Positions 54,140 to 62,139 of a stretch of 64,000 nt of DNA are shown piece after piece. Source of the stretch: Bdellovibrionota bacterium (GTDB lineage: Bacteria; Bdellovibrionota; UBA2428); the NCBI GenBank assembly GCA_041391385.1, contig JAWKOD010000002.1:173659-237658 (forward strand), given 5' to 3'. The position numbers and the translations under genes were made by a program. Position 1 is the stretch's first letter. Each line of letters starts with the position of its first letter. The notes below the pieces were generated by a model, which had not been told where the DNA came from, did not search any database, and worked only from the letters and a program-made list of their open reading frames with translations.

Positions 54140-54282
54140 CGGACTAGGGGGTCTCATCAAGTCATTCGCTATAATAAACAACACTCATTCCTCACTACGT
54201 TTGTTATGAAAATTGTTTATTATGGCGGAAGTGACGGCGGTCCACGCAACATCTTGAAATTTAAAACATCAAGCAGGTAGCG

Positions 54283-54302
54283 TGTAGCCAAATGTAGCCA
54301 CT
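54283..54302 (+). repeat. Tandem TGTAGCCA motifs (left end), putative integrase arm sites
   Basis: TGTAGCCA at 54283 and 54293; matches 61898-61927. Confidence 0.65.
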
Positions 54303-54344
54303 CACACCCAAAATCCGACATTTCGCTACGTTTCTTTGCATACT

Positions 54345-55439
54345 TCATACGCTGGGCCTTATCTCAATTACTCGTGCAAGCTCTTCTCTAGGGAGAGAAA
54401 ATTGCAGTTTGTCAGTGGCCCCTCGAAGATCCGATCCCGCTACTCTCACATAGCGGTCAGTTGTCTTTAGCTCAGCATGACCTACTATGGCCATGACTTG
54501 TGCAAGAGGTACTCCCTTTAAAAGCATTTGCGTAATAAAGGTGGCCCGAAGATCATGAAACTTTACTTGGGTGATTCCAATGACCTTGCAAAAGTCTCTG
54601 AGGATTTTTGCCTGCTCGCCGTTATCCCAATCCACAATCCGAGGGAGCACGAAGTCTTCGCCGTTTGATTTAAGTCTAAGCTGACTTAGGAGCAGCTTAA
54701 GACTTGTGCTTATGGGTACGACTCTGTTTCTGCGCGACTTTGTGGGGCCAATGCCCGTCTTAGAAGACCAAGACTTAGTCACGTAAATCTTTTCTTCTTC
54801 AAGAAATACATCGCTCCATTTAAGCGCATACAACTCGCCCGACCTCATTCCAGTAAAGACGGCCATCGCCCACACAGGATAAAACCTGTGATTGTTCATG
54901 GCTCCTTCTCTCAAGAGGAGGTCCACCTCTTGCGCATTAAGCACTGACTGCTTAGCCTCTGGTATCCTGATCTTAAATCCGTTACAGGGGTTTCGCTGCA
55001 ATACGCCCTCTTCAATCGCCAATGCCAAAACTCGCTTAATTGTTTTTAGCATCGTGAGCTTTGAGTGCGGTGATCTCACAGACATCTGCACAAAAAGTAT
55101 TTCGTGGATATGTTCTGCTCGAATCATCTCAAGCGGCATATTGTTCAGAACGGGAGTTGCCCATTTCGTCATTTGCCCTGCGTAGTTTTGGATGGTGGAG
55201 AGTCTAAGCTGGAGCTTTTCTCTTTCCAGATAATACTCCATCCATTCTTGCCAAAGCCAAACCTTGGGTCTGTTTTGTTGATCCAAGATTTCGGCCTTGA
55301 GTTTAAACTCCGCCTCGCTAGCGGCTCGCATAGATGTAAATCCACGCAGTCTTTTTTGAAATCGGCCCTTGGGGCTTCTTAAATTTATATACACTTCAAA
55401 AGTGTCTTTTCCGTTTACATTTATTTTTCTGATTGCCAT
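54345..55439 (-). CDS. Tyrosine recombinase/integrase
   Basis: Catalytic set intact: GMRSGE (R), TKSRR (K), FHDLR (HxxR), VGHAE (H) and RYV (Y). Confidence 0.95.
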   Translation of the reverse strand: MAIRKINVNGKDTFEVYINLRSPKGRFQKRLRGFTSMRAASEAEFKLKAEILDQQNRPKVWLWQEWMEYYLEREKLQLRLSTIQNYAGQMTKWATPVLNNMPLEMIRAEHIHEILFVQMSVRSPHSKLTMLKTIKRVLALAIEEGVLQRNPCNGFKIRIPEAKQSVLNAQEVDLLLREGAMNNHRFYPVWAMAVFTGMRSGELYALKWSDVFLEEEKIYVTKSWSSKTGIGPTKSRRNRVVPISTSLKLLLSQLRLKSNGEDFVLPRIVDWDNGEQAKILRDFCKVIGITQVKFHDLRATFITQMLLKGVPLAQVMAIVGHAELKTTDRYVRVAGSDLRGATDKLQFSLPREELARVIEIRPSV

Positions 55440-55481
55440 ATTCTTCTTCCTCTTTCCTTAATTTGAAAAACTTCGAATCCT

Positions 55482-55694
55482 TTAGGATTCGAGTTTTGGA
55501 AGAAGAGACAGCTCTCGAAGTTTAAAACGAAGCCGCCTTCTAATCCTGTATGTAGGTATGTGGCCTCGAAACACATGGATTCGTAACGCATTTACCGACA
55601 TGCGAAGATAAGAGGCTGCCTCAACGGAATTCAGCCAGATTTCACATTCACCTACCTTGTCAAAGAACTCTGCTGATACTTTTATACTCATCAA
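55482..55694 (-). CDS. Excisionase-like HTH protein
   Basis: WLNSVEAASYLRMSVNALR...GHIPTYRIRRRLRF, directly upstream of int. Confidence 0.85.
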   Translation of the reverse strand: MMSIKVSAEFFDKVGECEIWLNSVEAASYLRMSVNALRIHVFRGHIPTYRIRRRLRFKLRELSLLPKLES

Positions 55695-55808
55695 AGCCCT
55701 CCTGTTCTATTCGTTTTTAAATTTTTTCTTATTCTCATTTTTTTCTTTTCCCTTATCTTATTTCTTAATTTTTTTTATTAATTCCCAGTAATCCCGATCT
55801 AGCCCGTA

Positions 55809-55874
55809 GCTCCCCGCCCGCTGACCACTCTCTATCCCTTCTGGTAGATAGAGAGTGGTCAGCGGGCGGGGAGC
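55809..55874. repeat. Perfect 28-bp inverted repeat with a 10-nt loop
   Basis: GCTCCCCGCCCGCTGACCACTCTCTATC-ccttctggta-GATAGAGAGTGGTCAGCGGGCGGGGAGC. Confidence 0.95.
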
Positions 55875-55938
55875 GTCCCACGTGTTTAAGTTGAATGGCC
55901 GTTAAAGCATTGAAGTAAAAGCCGTTTTAAATTCTTTG

Positions 55939-56745
55939 TTACGCGGTATTTTCATCGTTCAAAGTGCTCACGCACTGAGCAAGATTTTCGCTTTCATTGA
56001 GCGGTTTAGCCTCGACAGATTTTGACCCATAGAAGTCCGATAGTTTAGTGCTTGAGCAATCAACAAAGTGAATCATCGCATTTGCTGGTTTTTGTATTAT
56101 GTCGCTCTGCTCGGTGATGATTAGCTGTGGGGAGTAATCAAACATCTGCACATCTAGCCACGCCTTAGTGATTGATTCTTTTATTGAAAGATCGCTAACA
56201 ACATACCAAACGTAGTCTACACTTCGCATATAGCGATACTCTTCAAAAACACCTTTATAGCGTTTTGCGCACTTTAGATTGAGTTCCATCTCAAGCGCAA
56301 TTGTTGATAGTTTGCCTTGGACTTCTTCAATCAAAATACCATCGGGTATTACCTGATCCCTGTGACTTGATGATCTTGTCCACTGAAAGTTCTTTCTCAC
56401 CTGCCGTTCAGATATAAACTCTTTGCACATGTCGATTGACTCTAAGGCCATCCTAAAATCTGTTATTGCTAGCTCATGCTCAAAAGCGTTTCTGTTTGTA
56501 AATCTAGCTAAAACATCCTGACCTATCGCTGTTGCCCCAGCTTTGCCCAAATAATATGCAGCTATCCCGTTACGAAGCCCTACGGATCTGCAAATAAGTT
56601 CATCCTTTTCGAGTTTCCTTAGCCTTCTATACATGGTCGTTGGCGCAATCCCACGAAAGCATTTTGCATGGATGTGTCTTGTTTCAAGTAATCCGTAGCG
56701 ATGAAGAAAATGTAGAAGCTCTTTGTCTCTTTTCTGTATTCTCAA
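55939..56745 (-). CDS. Replication-relaxation (Replic_Relax)-family protein
   Basis: N-terminal wHTH (RDKELLHFLHRYGLLET...RRLRKL), HELAITD, PDGIL...IALEMELNLK and a K...Y motif. Confidence 0.8.
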   Translation of the reverse strand: MRIQKRDKELLHFLHRYGLLETRHIHAKCFRGIAPTTMYRRLRKLEKDELICRSVGLRNGIAAYYLGKAGATAIGQDVLARFTNRNAFEHELAITDFRMALESIDMCKEFISERQVRKNFQWTRSSSHRDQVIPDGILIEEVQGKLSTIALEMELNLKCAKRYKGVFEEYRYMRSVDYVWYVVSDLSIKESITKAWLDVQMFDYSPQLIITEQSDIIQKPANAMIHFVDCSSTKLSDFYGSKSVEAKPLNESENLAQCVSTLNDENTA

Positions 56746-57155
56746 ATATCACTCCTTCCTGTGAGTTCCTGTAGAACTCGCTTTTTTAAATCTTCTTTGG
56801 TGAGTTGCTTTGGCGGCTCAGGTGTTTTTGTAACAATGTCTTTAGGTTTTTCTATAGGTGGCTGAATGTTTTCTCGTTCAGTTTTGGATGTTTCAGCGTG
56901 ATATGTTGGCCGCATTAGCGGTACTGTCTCTGCGCTTTCCATGTCCTCTTTTTCTGCAAAGCCGTATTTCACAACTGCAAATGTAGTTCCAGCAAATACA
57001 GCAAGCACGATGATCCAAAGCTGTAGCGTGAGGTATGCGCTAACAATGTCCCATGCAAGATTTCCCTTATAGTTACTACCGTTAAGCCTCATGCCAAATG
57101 CAACTGCATTCATTCCAAGTGCAATAGCGAGAACGCCCTTAACGATTCTTCGCAT
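56742..57155 (-). CDS. Hypothetical two-TM membrane protein
   Basis: ATG 57155 with GGAAGGA RBS; two hydrophobic segments and a charged tail; 4-nt overlap with the Replic_Relax gene. Confidence 0.65.
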   Translation of the reverse strand: MRRIVKGVLAIALGMNAVAFGMRLNGSNYKGNLAWDIVSAYLTLQLWIIVLAVFAGTTFAVVKYGFAEKEDMESAETVPLMRPTYHAETSKTERENIQPPIEKPKDIVTKTPEPPKQLTKEDLKKRVLQELTGRSDI

Positions 57156-57551
57156 AGGTATTCCTTCCCATGTGATGGGTTCTCCTTTCTTGTTTGTGTG
57201 ACCATCAAGACAAAAACGCACGACAAAGCACTACTTCACAAAACACATTTGCGAAGTAGGCAAAGCAGCGCCTTAGCCTTTTGGCCAAAGTTAAAAATGA
57301 AGTGGTTATGTTTTTATTTTGTTTGAAATTTTAATTTGATTTTTTATTTTTGCTGTGTGAAAGTAGTAGATGTTCAAGCCTACAAGTTCACGCACAATTC
57401 AAATCTAAAAATCTAACGGCCTCCTTTCTTTTTTCTAGGCAAAGTTATGCCTTCATAAATATTGTACCAGCATTTACTTAGTTTCCCCAAGAAAAATCTG
57501 CTCACAAAAAGTACTTGTATAGATTATTTTACCGAAGTTATACTTCGATAT

Positions 57552-57902
57552 ATGTCGAAGTCTCAGGCTCTGCTTTACAGAATGAACGATACTCCCGCTC
57601 CTAAGCTAGCTCGCATATTTGCAGCGCTCTCAGTAGGCGTTAGAATTCGCATCATACGCAACATTGCAAGGCACGGGACTATCGGGGTGGGTAAGCCAAG
57701 AAAGGGACGAGGCTGCACGATTAAAGAGGCAGGACGTGGACTCGGTATTGGTTGGCCTACGTTGTCTCACCATGTGTCGGTCTTGGAAAAGGCTGGGATG
57801 ATAACGATCTCTAGACATGGCCGCTTTAAGCGATGCTGGATAACAACTGAAGCAATTGGAGTGATGTCAGAGTTCTTTATGAGTCTTGGGCCAAGAGTAT
57901 AG
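57552..57902 (+). CDS. ArsR/SmtB-family regulator
   Basis: FAALSVGVRIRII...PTLSHHVSVLEKAGMI..SRHGR. Confidence 0.85.
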   Translation: MSKSQALLYRMNDTPAPKLARIFAALSVGVRIRIIRNIARHGTIGVGKPRKGRGCTIKEAGRGLGIGWPTLSHHVSVLEKAGMITISRHGRFKRCWITTEAIGVMSEFFMSLGPRV

Positions 57903-57960
57903 GTTGAGTATTTAACTTCTATATAAATCTGGATACAGCCAAACATGAACTATAGTTTAA

Positions 57961-58302
57961 TTATATTGTGAGATAGACCCCAATTAGGATAAGTCCTGCT
58001 CCGAGTACCTGCTGTGCAGATAGTGTCTCACTTAAAAAAATTACTGCGCTAAGCGAAATTAGAATGTATCGAATAGAAGATATTGCATTGGATTCTAGTA
58101 ATGGCTGCTTAGTGAGTATTACTAGCCAAAGAAGACTAGAAAATACCCATGCAATTATGGCCGATATCGTCCATGGGCTCATGAGAACTTTAGTAAGTTT
58201 TGTTGACTCCATTGCAGCTAACTTCATGGCTACATGTCCATAGACTGTAGTTAGAAAAAAAACCATCCATGCAAATATTTGAATTGAATTTAAGTTGCGC
58301 AT
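57961..58302 (-). CDS. Four-TM EamA/SMR-type (ArnE/F-like) membrane protein
   Basis: Four hydrophobic helices; FLSETLSAQQVLGAGLILIG C-terminus. Confidence 0.75.
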   Translation of the reverse strand: MRNLNSIQIFAWMVFFLTTVYGHVAMKLAAMESTKLTKVLMSPWTISAIIAWVFSSLLWLVILTKQPLLESNAISSIRYILISLSAVIFLSETLSAQQVLGAGLILIGVYLTI

Positions 58303-58946
58303 AAAATTATCTCCCTTGGGCAATTCCATCTAATAGGAATGGTATCGTTCAAGCCTCGGCTAACGATCATTGTGCTCGTTCCATTCTCAAATCGTGTCCC
58401 ATTCCACTTATAGAAAAACGCAGCAGGATATAACTTCTTCTTCAATTGCCATAAAACAATTTGGCCGCCGTGGAGGTGGCCAGCTATGATTATTTTGTAC
58501 CCTGCGGCTACAGCCTTAGGAAAAATATTCGGATTGTGTGAGCACAATATTGTATTTTTGGGCGGATTTTTATGAATAGAGCCATCAATAGTAATATTTT
58601 TTATGGATTTTCTGGAGTTTTCAATCCAAGACCCTCCCGAATCAATAACTATTTTAGACACGTTATTTTTTCCTACATAATCGTCATGGTTTCCGGAAAT
58701 TGCTAATACAGGTGCAATTACAGTTAATTTAGAGATAAGAAGTTTGAGCTTTATCAACCCAGTCCTATGGTCAACCAAGTCTCCGCCAAGCAATATAAAA
58801 CTAGGGTTTAAATTTTTAACTTTATAAATTATCTGATCTATAAAAAGTGAAGAGGTAAATCCAGAAAAGTGAAAATCTGATAAATATGTAAAGCGGCACG
58901 GAACGCTTAAATTGATTTTTTCTTCGCGGATGAATATCTTAGCCAT
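58290..58946 (-). CDS. Calcineurin-like metallophosphoesterase (YkuE/YaeI-like)
   Basis: SDFH, GGDLVD, GNHD, SHNP, AGHLHGGQ and VSRGL. Confidence 0.9.
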   Translation of the reverse strand: MAKIFIREEKINLSVPCRFTYLSDFHFSGFTSSLFIDQIIYKVKNLNPSFILLGGDLVDHRTGLIKLKLLISKLTVIAPVLAISGNHDDYVGKNNVSKIVIDSGGSWIENSRKSIKNITIDGSIHKNPPKNTILCSHNPNIFPKAVAAGYKIIIAGHLHGGQIVLWQLKKKLYPAAFFYKWNGTRFENGTSTMIVSRGLNDTIPIRWNCPREIILCAT

Positions 58947-59460
58947 TACGTGTACCTTCGTAGATAAGTAATATTGCCAGACAACCTGTACACCAGCGGT
59001 ATATTGCCTTTTGAGGCATAAAAACTGCACTTAACATATGTGCTGCAATCAGCATAGTTATAGGCAGTATCTCAATAAGAGATGTCGATTTCCTTCGAAG
59101 TTTCCATGCATCTTGAAGTGGTCGTTTACTTCCGTCAATTGCAACTGGGAAGAGAAAGATTAATTGAACTTCAACAATATAGAATGCGGGAATTGAAAGC
59201 GCGATTAGAGGCCAGTATGAAAAAAACAAGCCAAAAGCAAGAAAAAGTACTAAGATTAAACTGCTGCAAAAGTATTTCAGGCATCCAAGAAAATTATAGG
59301 AGTGGTTAGGAAACTCAAAGGCTCCCCCTCTATGTTGTTCTAATGCTTTATGCATCCATTTTGCACCTTTATGAAAGCTAAACGTAAACTCGGGTAATTC
59401 TACCAATCCGCTATCAATCATGTGCTTCGCCCTACTTAAGAAATGGTGTGATTTCATCAT
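58939..59460 (-). CDS. Hypothetical membrane protein
   Basis: ATGA overlap with the upstream gene; several TM segments; C-terminal WCTGCLA. Confidence 0.7.
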   Translation of the reverse strand: MMKSHHFLSRAKHMIDSGLVELPEFTFSFHKGAKWMHKALEQHRGGAFEFPNHSYNFLGCLKYFCSSLILVLFLAFGLFFSYWPLIALSIPAFYIVEVQLIFLFPVAIDGSKRPLQDAWKLRRKSTSLIEILPITMLIAAHMLSAVFMPQKAIYRWCTGCLAILLIYEGTRNG

Positions 59461-60017
59461 TTTACAAAACACCAGTGCATCCAAGATAACCAAGCAACTG
59501 TTTTGCCAAAAACAAGCATTCGATGAAATAATGTTTCGATAGCCCTACATCTTTTCCGATGAAAGACAAATTCATCGTATGAAATCAATACAGATGTATA
59601 CAAAGCGAAAACAATTGTTGGAATCAGAAAAACACTAGGATTCTTACTTAAGCTGGAGAGTATCATTAGACAAAAAAGTGGAAATCCTCCACTAGCCATG
59701 GCTAAAATATGACTTAGATGTTCGGCGGGACCGACTGTAAAAAAAAGTCGATGGAAAAGCCAATCTAAAATACCGCCTAGCAATGCGATAGAACCTGATA
59801 TGATCATAGCCCAGACTTGCCACGGGTATTCTGAGTAGGAAAATAGTAACTTATGAGGCACAAAAAACAATAAACAAAAAACAAATAGAATTGTAGGAGC
59901 GAACAATGAAAATAGAGAAATAAAGTCAGAGGCTTTTATGGAAAACGGCTTTCTTTTTAACCCCTCAACCCATGGATGATTAATTAATTCATTTTCCAAA
60001 ATATTCATTTTTATCAT
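59457..60017 (-). CDS. Hypothetical membrane protein with duplicated His/carboxylate motifs
   Basis: DWLFHR...EHLSH and DEFVFHR...ETLFH within TM hairpins. Confidence 0.72.
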   Translation of the reverse strand: MIKMNILENELINHPWVEGLKRKPFSIKASDFISLFSLFAPTILFVFCLLFFVPHKLLFSYSEYPWQVWAMIISGSIALLGGILDWLFHRLFFTVGPAEHLSHILAMASGGFPLFCLMILSSLSKNPSVFLIPTIVFALYTSVLISYDEFVFHRKRCRAIETLFHRMLVFGKTVAWLSWMHWCFVK

Positions 60018-60064
60018 AAAGCCCTCTTTTCATTTTAACTATAAATTGGTGGTTTAAAGTTGTT

Positions 60065-60388
60065 TCACTTCCCCTTGTAAGCAATTAACTCATGTATGTT
60101 TTCAAAGTAGTTTTTTATGGCCTTTTTACCGTTCTCTGTACAAGAATATGTAGTGAGTGTTTTTTTATCTTTGAATTTTTTATGAACCTCCACAAGGCCT
60201 GCGCTTTCTAGTTTTGCGATATGTGAGGATAGGTTCCCTCTGCTCAATTCTAGGTTTTCGCAAAGATAGGTGAAATCGAGTGCGTCTTTTTCGGTAATCA
60301 GTGCTGCCATGATTGCCAACCTTGTGCGATCACTTAAGAGAGGGTGTGTCTCAAGTATGATTTTAGCTTTCATGCTATTTTCCAGCAT
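60065..60388 (-). CDS. Winged-helix regulator (ArsR/HTH_34-like)
   Basis: RTRLAIMAAL...DFTYLCENLELSRGNLSSHIAKLESAGLVEV.K...TTYSCTENG. Confidence 0.88.
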   Translation of the reverse strand: MLENSMKAKIILETHPLLSDRTRLAIMAALITEKDALDFTYLCENLELSRGNLSSHIAKLESAGLVEVHKKFKDKKTLTTYSCTENGKKAIKNYFENIHELIAYKGK

Positions 60389-61094
60389 TTCTCATTTCTT
60401 TAAAGGTTTTTAGAAAGGAAAAAAGTGAAACGGCAAAAAAATATCCCAAGGCCCATCCTACGGAACTTTCTTTACTTATTAGAATATATACTGCAAGTAA
60501 AAGAGCTCCTAAGCCAAGGAGAATTCCTTCTTTGAAGCGCATGTTAAAGATTCGATTATGATAGAGTTCGTCAAAGATAAAAACTAGGAGCATGGGTGAG
60601 ACGAAATCAATTCTTCCACTTATAATAACTAAGCTCAGTGAGAAAAATTTTACGCTCAAATTTGCAACTAGACTTAGTCGTTTCAAATACTGAAAGTTTT
60701 TTTCAAGGTAGCTTGAAAAGCTAAGAGTACTTTTTCTCCAAGACATAAAAGCCGCGAAATAAAACAAAAGAACCATTAAAGCGATAAAAACGCCAAGATT
60801 GGCCAGGCCTACTTTTTGTATTTCCGAGTTATTTATCGATGCATATAAGTCTCGCGTAATTACGTTATCTCCTGCTAGTTCTACGAAAAGGAACAGCCCA
60901 GAGAAAAAGAGGGCTAGCGCCTCGATAATAATTTGGGGCTTGAGGAATTCGAGATTTTTCCTTTGCTTTGAAACTTCAAATTTTTGCAGAATTTGGTTTA
61001 TAAATTCCAGATCATCAGTACTTTTTTGTAATTCTCTCGTATCAATATTTTGTTTGGTCATTACATCTCCCTTTATTGTTTGTATCACAAACAT
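60375..61094 (-). CDS. Hypothetical multi-pass membrane protein
   Basis: About 5-6 TM segments; overlaps the wHTH start. Confidence 0.7.
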   Translation of the reverse strand: MFVIQTIKGDVMTKQNIDTRELQKSTDDLEFINQILQKFEVSKQRKNLEFLKPQIIIEALALFFSGLFLFVELAGDNVITRDLYASINNSEIQKVGLANLGVFIALMVLLFYFAAFMSWRKSTLSFSSYLEKNFQYLKRLSLVANLSVKFFSLSLVIISGRIDFVSPMLLVFIFDELYHNRIFNMRFKEGILLGLGALLLAVYILISKESSVGWALGYFFAVSLFSFLKTFKEMRNAGK

Positions 61095-61195
61095 GTTTGC
61101 AATTGTAGTTAATTTTTCATTAAGATAATAACTTAAATATTTTCATATACTTATGAGTGCCTTTAATTAGTTGCTAATGTGTGTCCAAAGTGGAC

Positions 61196-61224
61196 TTGAT
61201 TTTTGGTATCCGTTTGGATACCAT
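61196..61224 (+). promoter_or_regulatory. Sigma70-type promoter with an overlapping palindromic operator for the TA operon
   Basis: TTGATT-N17-TACCAT, with TGGTATCC-gttt-GGATACCA (61204-61223) between and over the boxes. Confidence 0.7.
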
Positions 61225-61235
61225 AGTAAATAGAA

Positions 61236-61571
61236 GTGGAAGCTACTCCGAAGAACGTCATCGACTATGAAACAGTGGGCGGGAAGTGTCCGCTTCGCGA
61301 ATGGTTAGATGAGTTGGATGCTTCTACCATTGCTCGGATAGAGGCGAGGCTTCAAAGAGTTGCCTTCGGAAATTTTGGAGATGCGAAATCTGTGGGGCAA
61401 GGGGTGAGTGAGCTTCGTATGAAATTTGGAAGTGGATATAGAGTTTACTTCGCTCAGTTTGGAAACGAAATTGTCGTACTCTTGTGTGGAGGAGATAAAT
61501 CCTCTCAAGATAGCGACATAAAAGTAGCAAAGGAATATTGGGAAGATTTTAAAAGGAGAAACAATGCTTAA
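61236..61571 (+). CDS. RelE/ParE-family toxin (addiction module killer type)
   Basis: CPLREWLDEL...ARLQRVAFGNFGDAKSVGQGVSELRMKFGSGYRVYF...LLCGGDKSSQDSDI. Confidence 0.92.
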   Translation: MEATPKNVIDYETVGGKCPLREWLDELDASTIARIEARLQRVAFGNFGDAKSVGQGVSELRMKFGSGYRVYFAQFGNEIVVLLCGGDKSSQDSDIKVAKEYWEDFKRRNNA

Positions 61572-61890
61572 AGGTGGAAGGTCTCATAAAAAATCTTTGG
61601 GTGAATGGCTTAAAAAAAGTCCAGACAATCAAAGAGAATATCTTAAAGCTCAGCTTGAAGAAAATGCTGATATGCCTGAAGTGATTGTTGCTGCAATTCG
61701 CGAAATTGCTGAAGCTCGTGGTTATGAGGTGTTGGCAAAAGAAGCGGGGCTCAGCCAAAAGGCTCTCTACAAAATTCTTGATGATACAAAAGAAGCGAAA
61801 CCTCGTTTTGAAACTATTTCAAAAATCATTCAAGCTCTTGGACTACGCTTTACTGTAGAAGCTAATCCTTACAGGACGAGGTTGGGGTAA
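61564..61890 (+). CDS. HTH antitoxin (addiction module antidote type)
   Basis: YLKAQLE...AAIREIAEARG..VLAKEAGLSQKALYKIL...KPRFETISKIIQALG; overlaps the toxin stop. Confidence 0.9.
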   Translation: MLKGGRSHKKSLGEWLKKSPDNQREYLKAQLEENADMPEVIVAAIREIAEARGYEVLAKEAGLSQKALYKILDDTKEAKPRFETISKIIQALGLRFTVEANPYRTRLG

Positions 61891-61897
61891 AATTTTT

Positions 61898-61927
61898 TGT
61901 AGCCACTGCTGAGCCAAAAAGTAGCCA
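61898..61927 (+). repeat. TGTAGCCA-like motifs (right end), putative integrase arm sites
   Basis: TGTAGCCACT 61898, CTGAGCCA 61909 and AGTAGCCA 61920. Confidence 0.6.
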
Positions 61928-62047
61928 ACCACAGAGAGTGTGTGAAATCTGGAGAAATCTCGTCGCTTCGAAAACTTCTCCTCTGCCGTTTGTTATGTAT
62001 CTGAGTTCCTTGGGGTCTAGGGATCAATCCATTTTGACTTGCCGTCA

Positions 62048-62139
<92 letters not shown>

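Follow-up and report, generated by a model that had tools for sequence, protein, structure and literature searches.

In Bacillus subtilis, undecaprenyl phosphate is freed from undecaprenyl-diphosphate-linked teichoic and teichuronic acid intermediates at the cytoplasmic face by UpsH (YpbG), a COG1408 metallophosphoesterase that has a single transmembrane (TM) segment and its catalytic domain in the cytoplasm; it is induced by the SigM envelope-stress response and requires its catalytic His pair (Roney & Rudner, mBio 2025, PMC11898649). Lipocones are small helical membrane enzymes with a conserved polar pocket that act on phosphate-linked lipid head groups, and members of one family, Wok/DUF2238, occur in association with calcineurin-like phosphoesterases or, in a different setting, with carotenoid genes (Burroughs, Nicastro & Aravind, eLife 2025, PMC12419801). 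The same study proposed that small four-helix membrane enzymes paired with calcineurin-like phosphoesterases regulate phospholipid head groups, and it described operons built on a "cytoplasmic-helix+6TM plus winged helix-turn-helix (wHTH)" switch, joined by Coq4, DUF1361 and transglutaminase genes and tied to undecaprenol/exopolysaccharide metabolism (PMC12419801). Here, we analysed a six-gene operon (g1 to g6) at positions 57961-61094 of a 64,000-nucleotide (nt) stretch of a Bdellovibrionota genome (assembly GCA_041391385.1, contig JAWKOD010000002.1, positions 173,659 to 237,658), hereafter the window. We found that its central genes g3, g4 and g5 form a trio that is real, widespread and, as far as our searches reach, undescribed, with two orphan membrane protein families (g3 and g4) and a metallophosphoesterase (g5). 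The six genes, all intact open reading frames (ORFs), are the following:

60375-61094, minus strand: g1, membrane protein, 239 amino acids (aa)
60065-60388, minus strand: g2, HTH_34 wHTH protein, 107 aa
59457-60017, minus strand: g3, orphan membrane protein with His/acid/Arg motifs, 186 aa
58939-59460, minus strand: g4, orphan 4-TM membrane protein, 173 aa
58290-58946, minus strand: g5, metallophosphoesterase, 218 aa
57961-58302 (113 aa) or 57961-58329 (122 aa), minus strand: g6, small EamA/ArnE-ArnF-like protein

All are present in the order given by the initial annotation of this DNA, and the start/stop overlaps it had reported for the last four genes were read directly at the junctions. The stop codon of g3 and the start codon of g4 share an ATGA (59457-59460), g4 and g5 overlap by 8 nt (ATGGCTAA), and g5 and g6 by 13 nt if g6 starts at the ATG at 58302 or by 40 nt if it starts at the ATG at 58329. 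Upstream, the start of g2 lies across the stop of g1 (14 nt overlap), and a 47-nt spacer with a good ribosome-binding site (AAAAGAGGG) separates g2 from g3. Scans for promoters and terminators scored the real sequence no better than its shuffles. The impression that the region is AT-rich, for which no value had been computed, proved correct: the GC content of the operon is 0.364, to be compared with 0.422±0.012 for 3.1-kb segments in the rest of the window, and 0 of the 256 segments compared were as GC-poor.

To assess how far the gene set is conserved, one genome per species was scanned, yielding 130 relatives of g3; the best 80 loci, together with three taken from assemblies, made a set of 83 loci (labelled L below, with L001/L002 and L003/L063 as duplicates), and the window proteins were compared with all of their ORFs using phmmer. 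The genes of the operon were found as follows:

g4: 80 of 83 loci, directly after g3
g5: 71 of 83 loci, directly after g4
g6: 13 of 83 loci, directly after g5
g2: 10 of 83 loci, upstream of g3 on the same strand
g1: 1 of 83 loci (L004), upstream of g2

The order and strand of g3, g4 and g5 are constant in all loci, the genes mostly overlap, and in many of them the g3 stop and g4 start overlap by the same 4 nt. Co-occurrence of the coupled genes across taxa, which the initial annotation had put forward as its own test, thus holds for g3-g4-g5; the fourth member, g6, follows in 13 loci. The complete six-gene order of the window was matched only by L004 and one metagenomic locus, in which a 233-aa gene occupies the position of g1. 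About ten phyla are represented among the hosts, including Bacteroidota, Planctomycetota, Verrucomicrobiota, Myxococcota, Cyanobacteriota, Chloroflexota, Spirochaetota (Leptospira), Elusimicrobiota and candidate phyla, while g6 accompanies the trio in Cyanobacteriota, Planctomycetota, Verrucomicrobiota and Chloroflexota. A quick maximum-likelihood tree built from g3 groups the Bacteroidota sequences in one well-supported clade and places the window protein on a long branch within a strongly supported, taxonomically mixed clade of 11 members, most of which have g6. Within the order of Hymenobacter mucosus, g3 was detected in 7 of 151 genomes. The module is an accessory trait, often lost and transferred. 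As a side observation, the cyanobacterium Argonema antarcticum (G305) has two copies of g3; L019 and L029 each hold g3-g4-g5 on a short contig, and one of the two g3 genes has an in-frame TAG.

In 12 loci (L004, L009, L010, L012, L015, L016, L020, L021, L026, L030, L043 and L047), from Planctomycetota, Verrucomicrobiota and other hosts, g4 and g5 are fused in frame into a single ORF, which argues strongly that the two proteins work as one unit. The g4 protein is predicted to consist of a cytoplasmic N-terminal region of ~55 aa followed by four TM helices. Its Lys and Arg residues are concentrated in the N-terminal region and in the TM2-TM3 loop, so that, with four TM helices, both termini should be cytoplasmic. 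Cytoplasmic ends would be consistent with the C-terminal fusion to a phosphoesterase lacking a signal peptide, and since g5 is C-terminal to g4 in the fusions, the enzyme is predicted to be anchored at the membrane's cytoplasmic face, with g4 as the platform that tethers it. Sixteen positions of g4 are invariant (F29, W35, M36, G59, K62, Y63, F93, Y94, E97, F102, F104, P105, D109, W156, G159 and Y167), including the motifs KY, FYxxE and FxFP and the D. The WCxGC motif that had been used to describe g4 is not a feature of the family, as its first Cys varies and only the second is conserved in at least 90% of members; a redox CxxC motif is ruled out for the same reason. The g4 profile gave no match to PDB sequences, no Pfam family is common to the members, and the window protein had no match in NCBIfam or PADLOC. 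A word-based homologue search with g4 returned g4 alone, and homology was established through the neighbours of g3. We regard as chance a weak AgrB match (E 0.004) given by the window copy only, out of 25 members. When compared with each other, g3 and g4 proved unrelated, so they are not paralogues.

Membership of g5 in the Metallophos family (PF00149) is supported by an E-value of 2.9e-9 and 38.1 bits for a cut-off of 21.5. The catalytic motifs are all intact (DFH, GGD, GNHD, H and GHLHGGQ), and the metallophosphoesterase motifs are invariant in the alignment of 11 fused homologues. The protein shares 45% identity with its L001 homologue, is the sole copy in its genome, has no predicted signal peptide or TM segment and gave no match to PDB sequences. 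Its best matches among curated models are the Escherichia coli phosphodiesterase YaeI (NF008460, E 5.1e-19, 68.8 bits against a cut-off of 188, model positions 47-267 of 271) and the Chlamydia UDP-2,3-diacylglucosamine diphosphatase LpxG (NF033458, E 5.7e-16, 58.7 bits against a cut-off of 350, part of the model only). Both enzymes, which we take to be COG1408 members, have a GHxHGGQ-type motif set in common with g5. However, LpxG is a membrane-anchored lipid pyrophosphatase, whereas g5 is a minimal domain of 218 aa without an anchor of its own, and scores of 59 versus 350 bits and 69 versus 188 bits do not make it an equivalog. Judged from its sequence, g5, which the initial annotation had called YkuE-like, is of the YaeI/LpxG type at the subfamily level and an equivalog of neither. 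The fusion protein was modeled with a predicted local distance difference test score (pLDDT) of 85, and its structural matches, all confined to the enzyme domain, were LpxH (top), Rv0805, Mre11 and GpdQ, with E-values of ~1e-6. By analogy, UpsH appears to be the closest characterised analogue of the g4-g5 unit; it differs in having its own single TM segment and no dedicated partners, whereas here the predicted anchor is a separate 4-TM protein, g4, itself preceded by g3.

The g3 protein is predicted to have five TM segments with its N-terminus inside, and its alignment revealed two hairpin motifs, DWxxHR...E and YDEFxFHRxRC...E...HR. The alignment has 13 invariant polar residues (D85, W86, H89, R90, E99, D148, E149, H153, R156, C157, E161, H165 and R166), and position H103 is Glu in many members. 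The loops bearing the motifs are rich in Lys and Arg (4.8 and 4.1 residues versus 0.75-1.7 in the alternate loops), so that by the positive-inside rule they face the cytoplasm, and the motifs are predicted to lie at the cytoplasmic side of the membrane. The AlphaFold2 model (pLDDT 86) shows one N-terminal helix and four long TM helices; a Foldseek search of the PDB with this model returned nothing with E < 1, and the profile had no match among PDB sequences. TSPO was rejected as a fold match, its TM-scores of 0.44-0.5 being not significant. No match was obtained in Pfam, NCBIfam or PADLOC, and no Pfam family was common to the members (20 scanned member-wise); the name "DUF3429" carried by some homologues in UniRef received no support from the Pfam scans, and the literature on DUF3429 is uninformative. 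We retrieved 76 homologues from a set of 5.8 billion proteins and 81 clusters at 50% identity among 1.84 billion representative proteins, the latter figure indicating a compact family. A catalytic or lipid-head-group-binding subunit is what we predict g3 to be.

A small membrane protein next to a calcineurin-like phosphoesterase recalls the Lipocones, and membership of the Wok/DUF2238 family, with its H(H2)/E(H3)/D(H4) active-site pattern, was examined. None of 20 g3 members gave a Pfam DUF2238 match, hhalign probabilities were 1.5% for g3 (against six DUF2238 proteins) and 0.7% for the distant paralogue described below, and the motifs of both are absent from the supplementary sequences of the Lipocone study (PMC12419801). 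Lipocones are moreover predicted to act on the outer leaflet, whereas the predicted site of g3 faces the cytoplasm. The two are alike in logic, not in family.

Clustering of all neighbouring ORFs revealed recurrent partners of the trio. A protein of ~329 aa that combines four TM helices with an SRPBCC-like domain at its C-terminus (4TM+SRPBCC) is encoded directly after g5 or directly before g3 in 31 loci, from Bacteroidota, Leptospira and one contig labelled Pseudomonadota; its SRPBCC assignment is weak (Polyketide_cyc2, E 0.01). An APH-like kinase-fold protein accompanies the module in 8 loci (Cyanobacteriota, Myxococcus and others). Some loci keep g3-g4 and are devoid of g5 (L022, L083 and L018 in Myxococcaceae, L003/L063 in Aquimarina addita); g4 is then followed by the APH-like kinase-fold gene in Myxococcus L022 and L083, and by the 4TM+SRPBCC gene in Aquimarina, where a 243-aa downstream gene was found to be neither a diverged phosphoesterase nor g1. 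In L038 (1226-12694), L041, L059 and L067 the trio is part of a long one-strand Bacteroidota-type operon encoding, in order, a TM protein, HTH_34, two Coq4-like proteins, a 159-aa TM protein, DUF4153, 4TM+SRPBCC, g3-g4-g5, DUF1361, PNP_UDP_1, a transglutaminase-like protein and a peptidase S51; a DUF2809 domain was not detected in this operon. Bacteroidota loci of g3-g5 have the same make-up as the switch operons of Burroughs et al. The L041 contig, labelled as a metagenome-assembled genome of Hydrocarboniphaga daqingensis, has an order and a g3 near-identical to those of the Bacteroidota contigs L059 and L067 (tree branches 0.03-0.11); it is probably mis-binned, the alternative being a very recent transfer.

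The last gene, g6, encodes a small 4-TM protein of the drug/metabolite transporter type resembling half of an EamA protein. It reached 27.9 bits against EamA (PF00892, cut-off 28.2; 24.3 bits for the L004 homologue), 30.3 bits against ArnF (E 4.5e-7, cut-off 99) and 21.8 bits against ArnE (E 1.7e-4, cut-off 92). Its start is likely the ATG at 58302 (MRNLN...), this second ATG (MRN...) being conserved in L004; the upstream "MELP" start at 58329 is probably an artefact, since its ATG arises where the codons for the invariant R-W-N-C-P-R-E of g5 are read in a different frame. The likeness to ArnE/ArnF, the subunits of the undecaprenyl-phosphate-aminoarabinose flippase, lies in the 4-TM EamA-like architecture, the length (~113-122 aa) and the weak model matches; however, these subunits form a heterodimeric pair, whereas g6 is a single gene under the cut-offs, and no arn gene, including ArnC/ArnT-like ones, was found near it in the window region. 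Together, the recurrent partners (ArnE/F-like protein, 4TM+SRPBCC protein and APH-like kinase) point to a chemistry of lipids and phosphate.

Further insight into g3 came from a borderline match in a relative, which corresponds to a 184-aa protein (L085:1465-2019, minus strand) encoded directly after CrtI-like and phytoene synthase-like genes. The 184-aa family, with 4-5 TM segments, is present in 52 of 301 Bdellovibrionota genomes and lies directly after crtI-crtB in all 30 Bdellovibrionota loci that were fetched (L088-L117); it matched neither Pfam nor NCBIfam, and every source lists it as "hypothetical". It has the same colinear D...H, E...H, DE..H.R, E...H constellation as g3. When its profile was searched against 4,279 ORFs, all 28 top non-self matches listed were g3 ORFs (E 5e-5 to 0.15), and the reverse search with the g3 profile ranked the paralogue first. 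A distant homology between the two families is, on these sequence comparisons, probable and not proven. The fixed place of the paralogue after crtI-crtB links the g3 fold to isoprenoid-diphosphate pathways, and the family is a candidate for an unrecognised membrane protein of the carotenoid pathway.

At the head of the operon, hydropathy indicates that g1 has a cytoplasmic N-terminal helix of ~50 aa and 5-6 hydrophobic stretches; it has no match in Pfam, NCBIfam or PADLOC, and its homologue at the same position in L004 shares 24% identity (E 1e-18). The g2 protein is a winged helix of the HTH_34 family (PF13601, E 2e-21, 76 bits, cut-off 27), which scored 41.1 bits, under the 55-bit cut-off, with the ArsR/SmtB metalloregulator model NF033788. 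Seven Bacteroidota-type loci (L028, L031, L038, L041, L042, L059 and L067) are headed by a membrane protein of 212-254 aa and an HTH_34 protein, the latter being assigned in L067 from a phmmer match to g2, unlike in the other six, and an eighth (L064) also has HTH_34 upstream. Similarity between g1 and the Bacteroidota TM partner of HTH_34 was low (hhalign probability of 24% only). From these operon heads and the neighbourhoods of Burroughs et al., the g1-g2 pair looks like a local form of a recurrent membrane-sensor/wHTH switch, with g1 as a candidate membrane sensor partner of g2. The view of the initial annotation that the operon is regulated is therefore plausible, given the pair of membrane protein and HTH_34 in L004 and in ~7 Bacteroidota loci, while g2 does not reach the ArsR/SmtB metalloregulator cut-off. 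The second ArsR gene said to converge on the far end of the operon is present (57582-57902, plus strand) as an ArsR-like wHTH gene (HTH_20, 27.9 bits, cut-off 27; 36 bits with the ArsR/SmtB model, under 55). None of the 83 related loci had a homologue of it, and it is island-specific with no shown link to the operon.

The operon is carried by an integrative island, whose other features are:

54222-62056: integrative island of ~7.8 kb at tRNA-Ser(tga)
54345-55439: tyrosine integrase gene (Phage_integrase, E 4.5e-21)
55939-56745: Replic_Relax/MobC-like gene
61236-61571, plus strand: RelE/ParE-family toxin gene (TIGR02683, E 2e-33)
61564-61890, plus strand: ORF of 108 aa overlapping the toxin gene, downstream of it
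62050-62139: tRNA-Ser(tga)

The g3 gene was searched for in 60 sampled relatives of the host, of which 6 share its genus, 13 its family and 41 its phylum. None of the 60 had it, the search returning two borderline matches only, and because of this absence we consider the operon as acquired cargo of the tRNA-Ser island. The features of a tRNA-linked island were all found, namely a tyrosine integrase, a tRNA target, a flanking repeat and the absence of g3 from relatives. The repeat, an 8-nt sequence (ATGGCGGA) seen by eye at 54221 and at 62046, the 3' end of the tRNA, is short and hence weak evidence, and the left flank of the island is not syntenic in the closest relative, so that an empty site is not demonstrated. 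The operon does lie between the integrase and tRNA-Ser and is compositionally foreign, as the "mobile" of the initial annotation implied. The GC content of the island backbone (54222-57960) is 0.428, compared with 0.364 for the operon; this gap between carrier and cargo suggests that the element is a mosaic and that the operon was picked up separately. The 108-aa ORF may be the antitoxin of the RelE/ParE-family toxin, and the pair, placed between the operon and tRNA-Ser, likely stabilises the island. Short repeats of the GTAGCCA type were also seen near the island ends, GTAGCCAAATGTAGCCAC on the left (54280-54310) and TTGTAGCCACTG...AAAAAGTAGCCAACC on the right (61895-61935); these may be arm-binding sites of the integrase.

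A hydrolytic machine at the membrane surface, working at the inner leaflet on a lipid whose head group is linked through phosphate or diphosphate, is consistent with the obligate trio, its translational coupling and gene fusion, the intact catalytic site of g5 and the predicted cytoplasmic orientation; the lipid-type partners and a regulator pair of the stress type agree with this view. The substrate is probably some membrane phospholipid or lipid-linked head group. The more specific reading that we favour, tentatively and with a little less than even confidence, is that of a regulated module hydrolysing the head groups of polyprenyl-diphosphate-linked substrates at the inner leaflet, a choice guided by the analogy with UpsH and LpxG and by the isoprenoid context of both the paralogue and the Bacteroidota operons. 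In such a pathway, g3 would be an integral-membrane protein presenting two pseudo-symmetric acid/His/Arg motifs at the cytoplasmic membrane interface, and g4 a 4-TM platform whose synthesis is kept in step with that of g3 by the ATGA coupling and which holds g5, a cytoplasmic binuclear metallophosphoesterase of the YaeI/LpxG/UpsH type, at the inner leaflet. The complex would bind a membrane lipid whose head group is attached through phosphate or diphosphate, and it would hydrolyse this linkage. Its substrate would most likely be an undecaprenyl (polyprenyl) diphosphate-linked intermediate, as for UpsH, or alternatively a lipid resembling UDP-diacylglucosamine, as for LpxG. The lipid product or a lipid-linked sugar might then be moved across the membrane by g6, the place of which would be taken in Bacteroidota by the TM-SRPBCC protein, and the membrane sensor g1 and the putative HTH_34 repressor g2 would switch the operon on under envelope stress. 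The "envelope-lipid modification" of the initial annotation thus stands as the best reading, by analogy only, from LpxG, UpsH, the ArnE/F-like protein, the SRPBCC partner and the isoprenoid-linked paralogue.

Several observations weigh against this assignment to carrier lipids. Searches of Pfam and the PDB revealed no relative of known function for either g3 or g4; g5 falls far under the equivalog cut-offs of YaeI and LpxG; and the comparison with UpsH, a GHxH metallophosphoesterase with the same catalytic motifs as g5, is one of motifs and described architecture. The link between g3 and the carotenoid-linked paralogue is weak by hhalign (probability of 8%) and modest by reciprocal hidden Markov model searches (E-values of 5e-5 to 0.2). 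Some loci have a kinase-like gene or g3-g4 only in place of the complete trio (Myxococcus, Aquimarina), the patchiness (7 of 151 genomes) suits an accessory resistance or niche role as well as carrier-lipid housekeeping, and the g3 motifs, being four acid/His pairs spaced i, i+4, would also fit a di-metal redox or metal-binding site.

Among the alternatives, a remodelling of glycerophospholipids or lipid A precursors survives best, although we consider it unlikely. Here g4-g5 would be an LpxG-like pyrophosphatase or a phospholipase C like PlcP, itself a metallophosphoesterase, and g3 a head-group transferase or hydrolase, the outcome being a changed bulk lipid composition. Among curated models LpxG ranks second for g5, the fusion model has LpxH as its best structural match, and an SRPBCC lipid-binding partner occurs in 31 loci; pairs of a four-helix membrane enzyme and a calcineurin-like phosphoesterase have, in addition, been proposed to act on phospholipid head groups (PMC12419801). 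However, g5 reaches 58.7 bits where the LpxG model asks for 350, g3 shows no relation to DUF2238/Wok, and a module that is rare, patchy and absent from relatives of the host should not be an essential step of lipid A synthesis.

The helix-end acid/His pairs of g3, four in number, spaced i, i+4 and arranged with pseudo-two-fold symmetry, raise the possibility, in our view improbable, of a membrane di-metal oxidase or hydroxylase of the di-iron type acting on an isoprenoid or another lipid, with the phosphoesterase processing a phosphorylated precursor or product, in a biosynthetic pathway and not in salvage. That the paralogue fixed after crtI-crtB keeps the constellation, and that Coq4-like genes occur in the Bacteroidota operons, would agree with such an enzyme; on the other hand, the motif does not conform to ExxH or other known di-iron signatures, many members have Glu in place of H103, the three invariant Arg beside His suit phosphate binding, and no conserved reductase or electron-donor gene was found near the g3 loci.

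More improbable still is a resistance cassette for small molecules or metals, in which the wHTH proteins would be sensors, g6 an SMR/EamA exporter, g5 (or the APH-like kinases elsewhere) the enzyme modifying the toxicant, and g3 and g4 transport subunits. Two ArsR-like wHTH genes, the status of the operon as cargo of a mobile island, the SMR-like 4-TM protein g6, the APH-like kinases of 8 loci and the patchy distribution would all be compatible with it, yet neither regulator reaches the metalloregulator cut-off, the second ArsR-like gene is without relatives in related loci, g6 is found in 13 of 83 loci only while g3-g4-g5 is constant, and the fusion of g4 with g5 speaks for a reaction at the membrane surface and not on a soluble toxicant. 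Detoxification, also named by the initial annotation, stays as a rival on these terms, weakened by the ArsR-like gene having no relative in the 83 loci. Its third suggestion, defence, finds no support: an anti-phage or abortive-infection module, in which the metallophosphoesterase would be a nuclease or would hydrolyse a nucleotide signal, with the membrane proteins as effectors, might be imagined from the mobile island, the adjacent RelE/ParE toxin gene, the Mre11/SbcD-type structural neighbours and the patchy distribution, but it is very improbable given the lack of any match for g1 and g3-g6 in PADLOC-DB 2.0, the lipid-type conserved partners (SRPBCC, ArnE/F-like), the envelope and isoprenoid genes of the Bacteroidota context, and a g3 tree that largely follows taxonomy within Bacteroidota.

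Returning to the polyprenyl-diphosphate reading, a bolder form of it, which we hold to be rather unlikely, is that g3 and g4 constitute an unrecognised class of integral-membrane enzymes presenting polyprenyl-diphosphate-linked head groups to a tethered phosphoesterase of the cytoplasmic leaflet. This would amount to a mobile, stress-switched rescue of carrier lipids in Gram-negative bacteria and other phyla, the crtI-crtB-linked paralogue performing a related chemistry on isoprenoid diphosphates in the synthesis of carotenoids. How bacteria survive antibiotics that trap lipid-linked cell-wall precursors is decided by enzymes that release or recycle undecaprenyl phosphate, which is scarce. To our knowledge, only two enzymes freeing undecaprenyl phosphate at the cytoplasmic face have been reported, in 2025 and in Bacillus alone. 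The conserved three-protein module described here, built around a putative UpsH-type enzyme, sometimes fused and spread across Bacteroidota, Planctomycetota, Verrucomicrobiota, Cyanobacteriota, Myxococcota and other phyla, is a candidate for the processing of lipid head groups at the inner leaflet in bacteria other than Firmicutes. Functional leads also emerge from it for the orphan membrane families g3 and g4 and for a third orphan, the family fixed in carotenoid operons of predatory bacteria.

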